Source: Hormiphora californensis
Lineage: Eukaryota; Animalia; Ctenophora
DNA length: 64,000 nucleotides
Assembly: GCA_020137815.1 (NCBI GenBank)
Contig: CM035353.1
Span: 2,914,001-2,978,000, forward strand
Direction of reading: 5' to 3'
Made by a program: the position numbers and the translations under genes. Shown piece after piece: positions 3,027 through 12,000 of the stretch. The notes under the pieces are model-generated. The model made no database searches, was not told the DNA's origin, and worked only from the letters and a program-made list of their open reading frames with translations. Within the stretch, counting starts at the first letter, position 1, and each line of letters starts with the position of its first letter.

Positions 3027-6000
3027 TCACCTAGCGACAGGTGCCCGATTCCGGGGGGTGAACACGGTAGCAGGGTATTTTGAAACAGTCTCCAGTACAT
3101 CTCCTTCACCCTTCACCAGCAGTTGGTCAACTATCTCCTGATGGATAGTTGTTTGTGATAATACAGTCGCACCCTAATTTACCGGGCCCCGATTTATCGG
3201 GAGGATAAACTTACCCTGATATATAGGAAGTTTATAGTATTGGGGGGGGGGGGGGGCGTCACCTTTTTTTGCCCATATTTGCCCATATATGGAAACAACT
3301 GAGTTTTCAAAAATCGTGGGACTTTGTGCAGAAATGGGCAAAAAATAACTCCTGCAGCTTACACGCCTAGATAGGTTTAAAGCCACTATAATCGAAGTAG
3401 AATTTCACGCTGAGGAAGATGCTTGTATCTATTTTGTTCTAGGACGTTTCTGAAACCCATGAAAGCCAAAAAACCTAAAAAATCCTAAATTTAGGATTTG
3501 ACCACTAAAAAATTTGACTTCTAATTAGACACCAAAGACTATTCTGACCGAGTTTTATCAAAATTTGGGCTCTTCTCACTCACTTTAAGGGTACGCTAAC
3601 CAAAAATTTTTTTCGAGTGCAGGGAAATCTCTCACCGTAGGGTTGTAGGCCATGCCAAGGAGACCTCAAATATGCAATTTTAGCCCTTAAGTCGAATTCA
3701 TATTTTTGCTACAGCTGTTTAAAAATGTCCTGTAAATACGTTTTTGGCATCTCAAAAAAATTTTTTTAAAGATAGGAGCATGCAAATTTGGGGATTTGAA
3801 GAGGACATGAAGGTGAATAACCACAAAAATTTTTTTTGCAATCCGAGCTGATTTCCGGTCCTGAGATGGATTTCTTTTTTTCCACTTTAACGCCCTATTT
3901 GGCAAAGTTCCGAAAACATGTGAAAGCTGTAAATTGGTGAAAAGTTGCGTCTAACGATTATCTAAGTGGCCATAAATTTTGGGCGTGTCCTTATTTGAGA
4001 TAAGCTGTACAGAGTTTTTTTTGTGAAAGCCGTCATTTCAGAAATAAATAAATTCCCTGTATCTCAAAAACGACTGATCGTAGAGACCTGAGACTATGCT
4101 TAAACGATTCAGAAGGTCCGATTTTGGGGGGGTCTTCTGAGAGACATTTTGTTCCTACTTCAACCGTTTTTGCTGTAATTGCGAAAAACAAATTCTATGA
4201 AAAGGGCAAAAGCCAAAATCCAATATCCTGTAATTTGGGAATTTTAGCTAAGAAAGGACCGAAACTATGGAAAAATGTGTAACAAGCTAATTTCTTCACT
4301 ATTTGGTCCATATGGGTCCCTATAATCACCAAAAACAAAATCACAAAAAATCCACGATGGCGAAGATGGGTTTTTGTTTTTCGCAATTACAGCAAAAACG
4401 GTTGAAGTAGGAGCAAAATGTCTCTCAGAAGACCCCCCCAAAATCGGACCTTCTGAATCGTTTAAGCATAGTCTCAGGTCTCTACGATCAGTCGTTTTTG
4501 AGATACAGGGAATTTATTTCAAACTTTTCAACACTACTTTAAACAAATTAATTTGAGGATCCGTTTTGCTGCCCCTCGCTAATCCTTCTGAGACTTCTGT
4601 TTATCCCTCTCCTTAAAGAAAAGACAAGAGAAGACGTGTCTGGTTTTTCTAAGTAAACAGATCTCAGAGGACCTCGTTGGGTTATAACCAAGGACGCCAA
4701 GACTTGCAAGGAACGGTTCCTCGCGCCTCTATTTACAGGACAGGATGTCGGGTATGGCTACCCATGATGTTATAATGTGCAGGAACGATATGGAGGGTAA
4801 GTTGCTCGCCACGAGCTACTCTGATAGATGTAAGGGTGCCAGTATTTTGCAGAGCATTAAGGATGATGCAGTGGAGCCTCCAAGTGGAGCCTCCAAAGCG
4901 GTTTTATGGACGATGGTCAAGGAACTATATGGATTGTTACCAGAAACACGACGCATCTCTACCCACTCATCTGAATCTGTGACATCATTCACAGCTGAAG
5001 ACTTGAAGGATACACTGGATAAGCTGAAAGAGGATCTTCTGAGCACACTACCGGATCTGGTTGCCCCCAAGGTTAGCAAGATCTTAGCTCCTGGCAGTGA
5101 CCAATTGGCAATTCACGCTGTGAATCGCATTGGCTCAGCACAGGAAACTGTGACCCCTGTGACTCCAATTAAGAGGTATCTGACTATCAAGGATAAAGGT
5201 GAGGAAGGACCTATGTGTGAGAAGAAGTGGACTACTGTCGTGAAGACAAAGGTGGAGAAAGCATTGAATAAGATTCCAGTCCTAGATCTTTCAGTCACCA
5301 AGAGGAGGACAAATCTTATGTTTGAGACCGATGAACAGTTGGAACAGGCGAAAGAAGTTCTTTCACCGTTCCTTGATGTTTCTCCCGTAGTGGAGAAAGA
5401 GAAGAAAAGAGATCCTCGCATCATGATCAATGATCTTGACCAAGACATGCTGGAAAAAGATCGCCTTCTGTCAGAGATTGTCAGTGATAAGAATGAGTCG
5501 GTGAAGAGACTAGTTGAGGAGGGTCACCTGGTGAAGGTGGTCCATGTAAACAGAACAGGAAGATATGCAGTGTTCCAGGTCTCTCCAGAAGTGAGGAAGG
5601 CGATATCAGAAAGGAAGGACAAGCTATTCTTGAAACTTCGACAGCATTCAGTGAGGAACAGGTTTTATGTCACGCAGTGTTTTCACTGCCAGCGCTTTGG
5701 CCATGTAGCAGGATCCATCTACTGCCCAAACAAGGATAAATCTCCGGTTTGTGCCTTCTGTACGGGAGATCATGACACTAGGAGTTGCCATGCCAAGAAG
5801 GAAAATGTAGTGAGCAGGATGAAATGTGTCAACTGTGATCATGGAGGAAGCAGAGAGGACAAGCGCCATGCTCAAAGTCACCCAGCCTCCAGCAGTATGT
5901 GTCCATTCTATGTAAATGCTAAAGGAAGACTCATGGAGAGTACCAGTGGAGTAACGAAGCAGGAAAAAAACGTGTACCTGACGAGGGCATGGGAGGATCT

Positions 6001-9000: not shown

Positions 9001-12000
9001 ACCCGTTTTTAATTATTTTTCTGTATTTAAGCTCGTGGCGAGCAGAAGTGTGAAGCATAAATTGGGGTTTTTCATAGCACGAGTGTTTTTCTGTGTTTCC
9101 AATATACGGACTTTTAAATCATTTTTTAGAGTTCCAGGACTCTAACTCAGTCTGTTATGTAATCAGTCACCGATAGTTATGTGAGCCGATAGTAATGTGA
9201 GCCGGTGTAATTTTTCTTTATTATTTTTGTTCTATTAGGGATAAGTTGGCGAGGTCTTACCAGTATATTAACCGTTCAGATCATCCTTCAGTGACAGCAG
9301 CAGTTTCGCTGCTCTGTCCCTGTCGGATATGGGCGGAATATAAACATAGTTATTATTATTATTATTATTTCTGAAATGACGGCTTTCACAAAAAAAACTC
9401 TGTACAGCTTATCTCAAATAAGGACACGCCCAAAATTTATGGCCACTTAGATAATCGTTAGACGCAACTTTTCACCAATTTACAGCTTTCACATGTTTTC
9501 GGAACTTTGCCAAATAGGGCGTTAAAGTGGAAAAAAGAAATCCATCTCAGGACCGGAAATCAGCTCGGATTTCAAAAAAAATTTTTGTGGCTACTCACTT
9601 CTTTGTCCTCTTCAAATCCACAAATTTTTATGATCCTATCTTTACAAATGTATTTTTAAGATGCCAAAAACTTATTTTCAGTTAATTTTTCAAGCAGCTG
9701 TAGCAAAAATATGAATTCGACTTGAGAGCTCAAATTGCATATTTGAGGTCTCCTTGGCATGGCCTACAACCCTACGGTGAGAGATTTCCCTGCACTCGAA
9801 AAAAATTTTTGGTTAGCGTACCCTTAAAGAATTGAAATCAAGCTATAGAGTTGAAAAAACGACATATACACTGAAAATTTCATTTAGCCCATTTTTGCCG
9901 ACTTTTGCCCATTTTGCCCATATATGTATTAATATGGGCAAAACCAAAATTCGCTATCATCAAGCTATAGAGTTGAAAAAACGACATATAACACTTAAAA
10001 TTTCATTTAGCCCATTTTAGCCCATTTTTGCCGACTTTTGCCCATTTTGCCCATTTATCAAAATTTGGGCTATTCTCACTCACTTTAAAGAATTGAAATC
10101 AAGCTATAGAGTTGAAAAAACGACATATAACACTGAAAATTTCATTTAGCCCATTTTTGCCGACTTTTGCCCATTTTGCCCATATATTAATATGGGCAAT
10201 ACCAAAATTCGCTGGGATTATGGGCTATGGGCAAAAAAAGGTGACGCCCCCTCCCCCCCCCCCACAGTATTTAACCTCCATATACGGGGTACCCCTATTT
10301 ACCGGGCAATCGGAGTTCGACAACAAGAGGACAAGTTTGTTTTGTTGAAACCCGTTTTATAATCGGGGTGGGGTCGAGCGTGGCAAGAAGATACCACTGA
10401 GGTGGTGGGAATTAAAGAAATCTTGAGTTTGTACTTGTCCCAGCAGCCCACTATACAAATAATAGACTTGAGCAAAATACTATGCTGACACAATTTTGAT
10501 TGGGAAGATCTTTTCAAGAGGCAGACAGGTTTGCCTCTAAGTGCGGAGAACCATATATTTATTGTGTGTGTGCCACATGCTACAAACAGCCCAACCCCCC
10601 TTGGCTACCCGTTACCCTTTTCCATGGGCGAGAGACAGATATACAAACCCCCAGTCCCCAACTCCATTTCCCTTCTTACCATGTCAGCCCCAACCCTCTC
10701 CCCAACTCCATTTCCCTTCTAACCGTGTCAGCCACAACCCCCTCCCCAACTCCATTTCCCTTCTTACCATGTCAGCCCCAACCCCCTCCCCAACTCTATT
10801 TCCCTACTTACCATGTCAGCCCCAACCCCCTCCCCAACTCTATTTCCCTTCTAATCATATGTCAGCCCCAACCCCCTCCCCAACTCCATTTCCCTTTTTA
10901 CCATGTCAGCCCCAACCCTCTCCCCAACTCTATTTCCCTTCTAACCGTGTCAGCCCCAACCCTCAGTCCCCAGTTCTATAATTCCCTTCTAACCGTGTCA
11001 GCCCCAACCCCCTCCCCAACTCTATTTCCCTTCTAACCGTGTCAGCCACCACCCCTTGGCCCCTCCCCAACTCCAGTCCCCAACTCCATTTCCCTTCTTA
11101 CCATGTCAGCATTGGATAGTTTCCTTCCCCGGGCCTGGAGAGCCCTCACCACAGACAATCTACTCAGATGATAAAGGGAGGGGATCACAGAGGACAGGTT
11201 TAGCAGATCCAGAGACACATCACTGTCCATTGTAGCGGTTATTGAGTCGTAGGCCCACTGGGGCAAACTGTGGCCTGTTACAAGTAACCTGAAACAGGAA
11301 TATTATGGTTTTTTATTCATTGCACATTTGAACAAAAATTTTCAATTTGATATGATTAAAATTTTGAAATTTCAAGAATCGTTATGAATGATATATATTA
11401 TATTTTGTCAAAGCTTTGGCTAGGTTTCGGGAAAATTTCATATTGTGCGGCACACGGCTATTTTCTACCGAAGATCTTACTGTAAAATGAGTAAATTGAA
11501 TTTTTGCACATACATATATGTATCTCCTTTGCAGCTGCTCTACACTTTTTCAGCACGAGAATGTTAAAAATGGGGCGGCTGAGCGCTGGAAATCGCCCTG
11601 ATTTCGAATATTTTTTACACGACAAAGAATCTGAAAAATTATTATAAAACTCCTGAAAATCGAAAAAATAAGGCAGAAGAATAGTATTTAGCTATCTGCA
11701 GACTGCAAGTTCACACAGCATCTAGGTTTAAATTCAAAATAATGATTCAGGTTACTAAAACTACCTGATTAATTCTCTCTATCATATCCATCCCTGATTA
11801 AATTTCTCTATATTTATTCTTCTATCTCTCTCTCACTCTCTCTCTATTTATCTCTCAATTCTTGTCAATCTAGACTTGCCGTGATGGGGAATCAGCGAGT
11901 AAACTCTATTACTAAGGCAAATTATACACAAGCGACAAAGAGAGGGAGAGAGAGAGAGGGAGAGAGAGAGAGAGAGAGAGAGAGAGAGAGAGAGAGAGAG

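Follow-up and report, generated by a model that had tools for sequence, protein, structure and literature searches.

Because long interspersed elements (LINEs) lose upstream promoters on copying, every lineage must have some means of restoring its 5′ end; internal promoters, ribozymes, and insertion into transcribed arrays all serve this purpose. In kinetoplastids, SLACS, CRE, and CZAR have a restriction-like endonuclease and are inserted in spliced-leader (SL) RNA genes, and retrogenes bearing SL relicts were reportedly described in dinoflagellates by Slamovits and Keeling in 2008. Here we analyze a 64,000-nt stretch of the genome of the ctenophore Hormiphora californensis (GenBank assembly GCA_020137815.1, contig CM035353.1, positions 2,914,001 to 2,978,000; hereafter the window), in which a LINE insertion ~4.85 kb long begins with the SL exon of its host. 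The head of this element very probably derives from a trans-spliced RNA and is a trait of its family.

The closest described systems each share some features with the window LINE. NeSL of nematodes is likewise a non-LTR retrotransposon (one without long terminal repeats, LTRs) with a leader at its 5′ junction, but it has a restriction-like endonuclease and inserts into SL RNA genes, its leader being target DNA (PMC4640811). The window LINE, unlike NeSL, SLACS, and CRE, has an apurinic-type endonuclease (APE) and two open reading frames (ORFs), lies in dispersed AT-rich targets, and carries its leader along. The L1Tc/ingi elements of trypanosomes are also LINEs in a trans-splicing organism that need a 5′ end of their own, and their Pr77 is the opposite solution, an internal promoter combined with a ribozyme that yields unspliced RNA (PMC1874656, PMC3185411); an Rfam search of the 5′ untranslated region (UTR) of the window LINE gave no ribozyme match. 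The SL-relict retrogenes of dinoflagellates resemble the ctenophore heads in that a trans-spliced RNA was reverse-transcribed to the leader and then integrated, and in these retrogenes the AG within an integrated leader can take a new leader and the leader has been proposed as a promoter (PMC5585692, PMC12014239). They are, however, host genes copied in trans and have tandem, decaying relics, whereas the ctenophore heads are single, undecayed, and found on LINEs or LINE-like elements of an animal host.

Genomic retrotransposon copies that bear a leader, as the window LINE does, have also been recorded in flatworms, where 597 loci have partial leaders on LTR or LINE elements and "may be" integrated trans-spliced RNAs (PMC12582326), and six such loci in Schistosoma are possibly chimeric (PMC5832876). 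In Hydra, ~30% of the Iso-Seq reads from transposable elements carry a leader (PMC12220107). In the available text of the flatworm and Hydra reports, these cases have partial leaders and were either discarded or regarded as possibly chimeric, and no fixed family-wide junction, comparison across diverged families, or replication cycle is described. In the ctenophore LINEs, unlike the flatworm loci, a near-complete leader is present on every family member with a visible 5′ end. SL-tagged retrotransposon copies have thus been mentioned in passing for flatworms; in the ctenophore LINEs, the leader head is a family- and clade-wide trait. No publication on leader-headed LINEs in ctenophores was found in the literature searched, which excluded most subscription papers and Repbase.

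The Window LINE Begins with the Host Spliced Leader

The LINE insertion sits inside a foldback (palindromic) repeat, of which an empty copy is present elsewhere in the window (Table 1). When the occupied and empty copies were compared, the match of the left arm ended at 4519 and that of the right arm began at 9365, the two overlapping by 2 nt (TT) in the empty copy; the unambiguous insertion is 4520-9364, and the target duplication is ≤2 nt. This agrees with the preliminary description of the locus, made from the sequence alone, which had used the empty foldback to place the 5′ boundary at ~4517-4520. The TTT at 4517-4519 is compatible with the host target and the leader alike and constitutes a 5′ microhomology.

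The segment 4517-4557 is identical at 41/41 nt to the 3′ end of the published 44-nt H. californensis leader (PMC8527503) and, over the same 41 nt, to an SL RNA gene's 43-nt exon in a metagenome contig (L022), with a chance expectation for such a 41-nt match in 128 kb of ~5e-17. A full-text literature search with a leader 15-mer returned PMC8527503 as its sole match. In the window LINE, the leader runs into GATCC and has no GT donor, and ORF1 starts 187 nt downstream. The preliminary description was therefore right to report a 41-nt SL head followed by GATCC rather than GT ~190 nt before ORF1 and to recall the motif as the ctenophore SL.

A metagenome collection was scanned with an exact leader 29-mer, which gave 34 loci. 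Most of these (23/34) are mRNA-like, with the leader at the contig end and the first ATG 1-41 nt downstream, and 20/23 encode a recognizable host-gene Pfam family at E ≤ 1e-10 (G-alpha, innexin, ribosomal proteins, cathepsins). A single locus (1/34, L022) is the SL RNA gene, consisting of exon, GTAAG donor, and hairpins; at L022:263-1513, it alternates with 5S rRNA in two units with a 778-bp tandem spacing. The motif is thus located at mRNA 5′ ends and in a GT-donor SL RNA gene, as would be required of a leader, while the Sm site that had also been expected would be a noncanonical one: the nearest thing to it in the L022 SL RNA intron is a U4 run between hairpins, 52-60 nt past the donor. In the leader-headed contig L010:1-1339, the first ATG opens a ubiquitin-like start and the longest ORF (ribosomal L13e) follows 619 nt later; two genes are present in this contig, which is either a chimera or a dicistronic RNA.

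Leader-Headed Relatives of the Window LINE

Diverged relatives of the window LINE account for 6/34 loci (L003, L007, L008, L015, L021, and L034). Their ORF1 proteins are 32-59% identical to that of the window LINE, the reverse transcriptase (RT) is 57-66% identical in the four that reach it, and in all six, the leader is joined to the element's own UTR of 145-215 nt. In an ORF1 tree of 35 rows, the seven leader-headed elements are spread over separate branches, these seven being the rows with known 5′ ends. Another 4/34 loci (L016, L020, L031, and L032) are leader-headed elements that form a second group with a common short UTR motif; TTTYAG is found six bases past the leader in L016, L020, and L032 and is absent in L031. 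Together with the window LINE, these 10 loci make up 11 LINE-type heads.

Counted upstream from the donor, 11/11 LINE-type heads match the SL gene over 35-43 nt, and no match goes beyond nt 43, so that 0-8 nt have been lost from the 5′ end of the leader in the integrated heads. Apart from L022, no locus contains the 12 nt preceding the SL exon or the 12 nt with which the SL intron starts, and the window lacks both as well. Because the match is bounded by the SL start site and the splice donor, it has the outline of a spliced RNA and not of captured gene DNA or of a target site. We found no host-gene retrocopies among the loci with genomic flanks, all 10 of the leader loci with apparent genomic context outside an SL gene being LINE or LINE-like. 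The SL junction lies within 1-3 nt of the homologous UTR start in seven families, and 6/7 families share an AG located ~33-35 nt from the start of the UTR.

Contigs Not Selected by the Leader Extend into It

Contigs aligned to the UTR of the window family, and not selected by the leader, continue into it in two studies of organism A (X3 and X5) and in X11, from organism B. The deepest X3 contig on the UTR (4531-4747) has zero differences, an X5 contig (4537-4694) enters the leader with 11 differences, and three contigs from X11, the second organism, enter it. X3 also contains three leader-starting sister families, one of which matches L021 and one of which resembles L015. Foreign upstream DNA between 4558 and 4709 was present in 0/6 partly aligned X3 contigs (of 55), and no outron-bearing form of the window LINE family was detected among the matches listed for X3, X5, and X11. 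In a single X5 contig, the leader is fused to an internal AG of the UTR at 4700-4701. In runs X22 and X14, presumed to be RNA, contigs cover the leader alone.

The six diverged relatives and the contigs of two organisms support the SL head as a family- and clade-wide trait rather than a one-off event. A one-off template switch or an assembly chimera could be suspected at a single locus, since the leader has hundreds of genomic copies (PMC8527503) and the second copy of the LINE family in the window differs by 11 gap openings, from which it follows that the assembly may be error-prone. However, the identical junction is found in contigs from three studies and two organisms, and the contigs of the six diverged relatives span 35-43 nt of leader plus >1 kb of element, making such an origin extremely improbable.

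A Palindromic Element at 61 kb Carries the Same Leader

The preliminary description had also reported the leader motif on an unrelated element at ~61 kb, which we confirmed. This head-to-head insertion has in each arm the leader, then a hammerhead-like core, then AATAAA. On the minus strand, the leader is exact over 37 nt (60966-61002), and on the plus strand, there are two degenerate 34-nt leader-like units in tandem (60998-61063), one of which stops at the first AG of its neighbor. The GATCC that follows the leader in the LINE is shared in full, five letters, with one arm of the 61-kb element and as four letters (GATC) with the other. We considered GATCC as a common cassette of the LINE and the 61-kb element and rejected it, as one arm reads GATCT and the sister families begin with other bases.

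Penelope-like elements (PLEs) show inverted, 5′-truncated arms and have hammerheads in their pseudo-LTRs (pLTRs) (PMC8557442), and the 61-kb element resembles such insertions in its inverted arms and hammerhead-like core. The core has stem II and GAAA, but an A at the second position makes it noncanonical; an Rfam search of the 61-kb element returned no hammerhead, only chance hairpin and miRNA matches, and no PLE ORF was detected within the element. It is likely a Penelope-like pLTR fragment, and this single locus likely represents a second retroelement class copied from leader-bearing RNA.

Origin and Proposed Renewal of the Leader at the Element Head

As first described, the window LINE was held to differ in kind from NeSL and SLACS, and the APE, the two ORFs, and flanks unrelated to the SL gene are consistent with this: a match to the SL gene was found at 0/11 5′ flanks and 0/4 3′ flanks. 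A related possibility is that a NeSL-like copy, inserted where the exon and intron of an SL RNA gene meet and transcribed together with that gene by the SL promoter, seeds the dispersed leader-headed copies. The SL genes are arranged in tandem arrays (L022), and NeSL is known to target SL genes (PMC4640811). Yet the endonuclease is an APE and not restriction-like, none of the four tail junctions (window, L008, L015, and L032) enters the SL intron, no head enters the DNA upstream of the SL gene, and every family, as well as the second LINE lineage, would require its own source at the identical base. Sources of this kind are very unlikely.

We favor a different reading, to which we give slightly more credence than doubt, namely that the leader is re-added by host trans-splicing when the element RNA is synthesized, the spliceosome setting the 5′ end of the element. 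The RNA that underwent reverse transcription would have borne a trans-spliced leader, and reverse transcription would have proceeded to or near the cap, the product being joined to the target via the TTT microhomology with a loss of 0-8 nt of leader. The integrated copy would then be transcribed from any upstream start, whether by read-through or from a weak local promoter, and its AU-rich integrated leader and final AG would act as outron and acceptor. A fresh leader would replace the old one, restoring the lost 5′ bases and keeping the head the same as the current leader of the host, while the UTR drifts. With no outron detected, the final AG of the integrated leader is the site that would have to act as acceptor, and this re-splicing at the integrated leader is the least certain step of the proposal. 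In distant pairs, similarity over the first 43 UTR nt is on a par with that of shuffled sequence (0.49-0.58 vs. 0.47-0.53), yet the leader is unchanged; renewal by trans-splicing would explain at once the unchanged leader and the heads that fall short by 0-8 nt. The X5 joint at 4700-4701, the lack of TTTYAG in L031, and the 61-kb plus-arm leader unit that ends on the AG of another are hints that fit fresh splicing.

Several observations weigh against renewal by trans-splicing. The six relatives and the four other elements were picked by an exact leader 29-mer; their perfect match is in part a product of this selection, and it speaks for the presence of the leader and not for its prevalence. 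In the contigs that were not selected in this way, the leader-side overlap is 21-27 letters, compared with a bridging rule of 31 that is reached perhaps by X11 record 1 alone, and because rare variants are lost from contigs, a master of low copy number with an outron could escape detection. In addition, X1 or X3 may be where the window sequence itself comes from. The X5 joint comes from a single contig with a depth of 12.1, a short side of 24-26 letters, and 2 ambiguous letters, and a leader joint to the recurring AG ~33-35 nt into the UTR was not present among the matches listed. The tandem units of the 61-kb element are degenerate and may have originated by local duplication. The final acceptor of the leader would be GAG, the weakest NAG acceptor type and rare among splice acceptors, and a ctenophore trans-splice acceptor consensus was not found in the literature searched. 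L016, L020, and L032 retain TTTYAG six bases downstream of the leader, although repeated re-splicing should delete it, and tandem leader relics were found in 0/11 LINE-type heads. The GAG end, the kept TTTYAG, and the lack of tandem relics leave as a conjecture the earlier suggestion that the AG of the integrated leader acts as the acceptor of the next cycle, and the internal promoter that the element was suggested to do without is likewise only conjecturally absent.

The leader may instead be templated, having been captured once or a few times and then copied within the element, with an internal promoter in the UTR or leader, and preserved by selection or occasional re-splicing. The persistence of TTTYAG directly behind the leader in three loci, the position of the junction at the homologous UTR start in the seven families, and the poor quality of a terminal GAG as an acceptor all point in this direction. 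A basal-promoter role has also been proposed for the integrated dinoflagellate leaders (Song et al., PMC5585692). In nematodes, the SL exon may serve as an internal promoter element, although a literature search did not confirm this. However, under pure templating, the 0-8 nt 5′ losses would accumulate as erosion, 35-43 nt of intact leader beside 43 nt at shuffle level is more than a promoter motif should need, and one contig has the leader on a different AG. A templated head is in our judgment unlikely, while still a serious competitor.

It could also be supposed that rare source copies possess a promoter, an outron, and a YAG acceptor and that their leader-headed daughters are mostly dead ends, which is the same scheme as in host genes and dinoflagellate retrogenes (PMC5585692). 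Low-copy forms of this kind can vanish from contigs, and the ORF2 of the window copy is broken. Nevertheless, no upstream form was detected in the six partly aligned X3 contigs or among the X5 and X11 matches listed. Furthermore, trans-splicing removes the promoter, which is not retrotransposed unless unspliced RNA is copied, and regular renewal of the masters would therefore be needed in seven or more families that diverged long ago. Hidden masters are accordingly improbable.

Extending renewal by trans-splicing to the elements as a group, we suggest only tentatively that at least two LINE lineages of pleurobrachiid ctenophores, and perhaps a Penelope-like element too, lack a start-defining promoter and that their integrated leader may be the outron and acceptor that regenerate an exact capped 5′ end in each cycle. 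If true, a leader renewed by trans-splicing is a further solution to the 5′-end problem, in an animal and across a clade of elements, and one host leader on many families, with differing leaders in other ctenophore genera, amounts to a natural swap experiment. There are 718 leader copies in the Hormiphora genome and 491 in that of Mnemiopsis, which have been regarded as leader loci prone to attract mis-mapped reads (PMC8527503). Leader-headed elements offer a reading of these copies, and a considerable fraction of the "orphan" genomic leader copies in ctenophores, which number in the hundreds, would, if the proposal is true, be heads of such elements. A warning follows for such genomes, in which retroelement heads may inflate SL-gene counts and 5′-exon annotations.

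Element Body and Class

The window LINE, with two ORFs and an APE, is placed by its ORFs and tail in the CR1/L2 group (Jockey superfamily), with L2, L2B, Kiri, Daphne, Crack, and CR1 as candidate clades; clade names are missing from the RT relatives listed, at least 120 in number. By its structure model and sequence, ORF1 has the type I layout of RNA recognition motifs (RRMs) and CCHC knuckles, the knuckles being read from the sequence. ORF1 has no Pfam match at 0.001, zf-CCHC_6 being matched only weakly, and the model (predicted local distance difference test score, pLDDT, 75) retrieved ferredoxin-fold and tandem-RRM chains with Foldseek at E 3e-5 to 1e-3, with low whole-chain template modeling (TM) scores. 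The type I ORF1 layout is present in the L2, CR1, and Jockey lineages, and CR1/L2 LINEs with a type I ORF1 share with the window LINE two ORFs, APE and RT, two RRM-like domains followed by zinc knuckles, a simple-repeat tail, frequent 5′ truncation, and little or no target duplication (PMC4120745). Unlike these LINEs, the window LINE has a host SL exon as its 5′ end.

The Pfam content of ORF2 is PF03372, PF14529, and PF00078 alone, with no RNase H and no restriction-like endonuclease. A frameshift near 6660-6669 splits ORF2, whereas APE and RT are within one frame in P0034 and P0035, relatives that are 94% and 86% identical, respectively; the frameshift may be a true lesion or a sequencing error, and either fits. 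The locus had been described as a full-length LINE, which is accurate with respect to the leader, both ORFs, and the tail but is to be qualified by the broken ORF2. Relatives of ORF1 and ORF2 are recorded from Pleurobrachia bachei (63% and 47% identical), and the clade is diversified, with ~30 ORF2 clusters (49-94% identity) and 33 ORF1 clusters. L008 and L015 have a 3′ end and tail similar to those of the window LINE. The leader was not found in viral_contigs, and a search for ORF1 relatives in viral_contigs and genome_contigs was likewise negative. The leader is absent from the 5′ junction of the second copy in the window (62456), as expected of a truncated copy. An X3 contig with a depth of 403.9 omits 80 nt of ORF1 (window 4842-4923) and represents a deleted subfamily or a sister family.

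Table 1. Coordinates of features in the window and content of the second group of leader-headed metagenome loci
Feature	Positions	Strand	Remarks
Left part of host foldback	3585..4519		97% identical to empty copy 38033-39430
SL exon	4517..4557	+	Nt 3-43 of the 43-nt leader; 4517-4519 also host-compatible
LINE 5′ UTR	4558..4744	+	187 nt, no ATG; internal AG at 4700-4701
ORF1, 429 aa	4745..6034	+	Type I-like: helices at the N terminus, a pair of RRM-like alpha/beta domains, zinc knuckles of Cys/His type
ORF2 APE part, stop-to-stop frame	5923..6699	+	PF03372 E 5.6e-14, PF14529
ORF2 RT part	6660..8963	+	PF00078 E 9.7e-30; out of frame with APE part
3′ UTR and (TTA)n tail	8964..9364	+	Tail 9350-9364, blends into target
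Right part of host foldback	9365..9827		97% identical to 38967-39430
Empty host foldback copy	38033..39430		Places insertion point at 38967-38968
Palindromic head-to-head insertion, 318 bp, unrelated to LINE	60874..61191		14-bp direct repeats 60860-60873, 61192-61205
Second copy of window LINE family, 5′-truncated, cut by window end	62456..64000	+	97.7% identical to 7764-9303, 11 gap openings
L016, leader-headed			ORF related to that of L032, E 2e-15
L020, leader-headed			ORF1 and APE
L031, leader-headed, LINE nature uncertain			Shares UTR motif; 1 nt of flank
L032, leader-headed, ORF1-only, non-autonomous			ORF with (TAA)n tail, no RT

Other Features of the Window

Long foldback repeats are numerous in the window (15144-16415, 21183-21645, 23963-24550, 32130-32886, 40261-41201, and 45522-45810), and the one at 23963-24550 is a 74% relative of the host element of the LINE. 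A Gypsy-type LTR retrotransposon is represented at 52872-56846 (-) by a 1323-aa frame containing a zinc knuckle, RT, RNase H, and integrase, and its flanks include tandem repeats, located at 57.8-58.2 kb and at 59.5-59.9 kb. There is also a dispersed repeat of ~110 bp in about ten copies, 90-100% alike and in both orientations, at 14398, 27632, 28000, 30174, 37686, 39678, 44672, 45375, 52178, and 52400. A 326-aa frame at 47571-48548 (+) has a weak 7tm_1 match under the Pfam cut-off, and a tRNA-Arg(ACG) gene is located at 50389-50463 (+).

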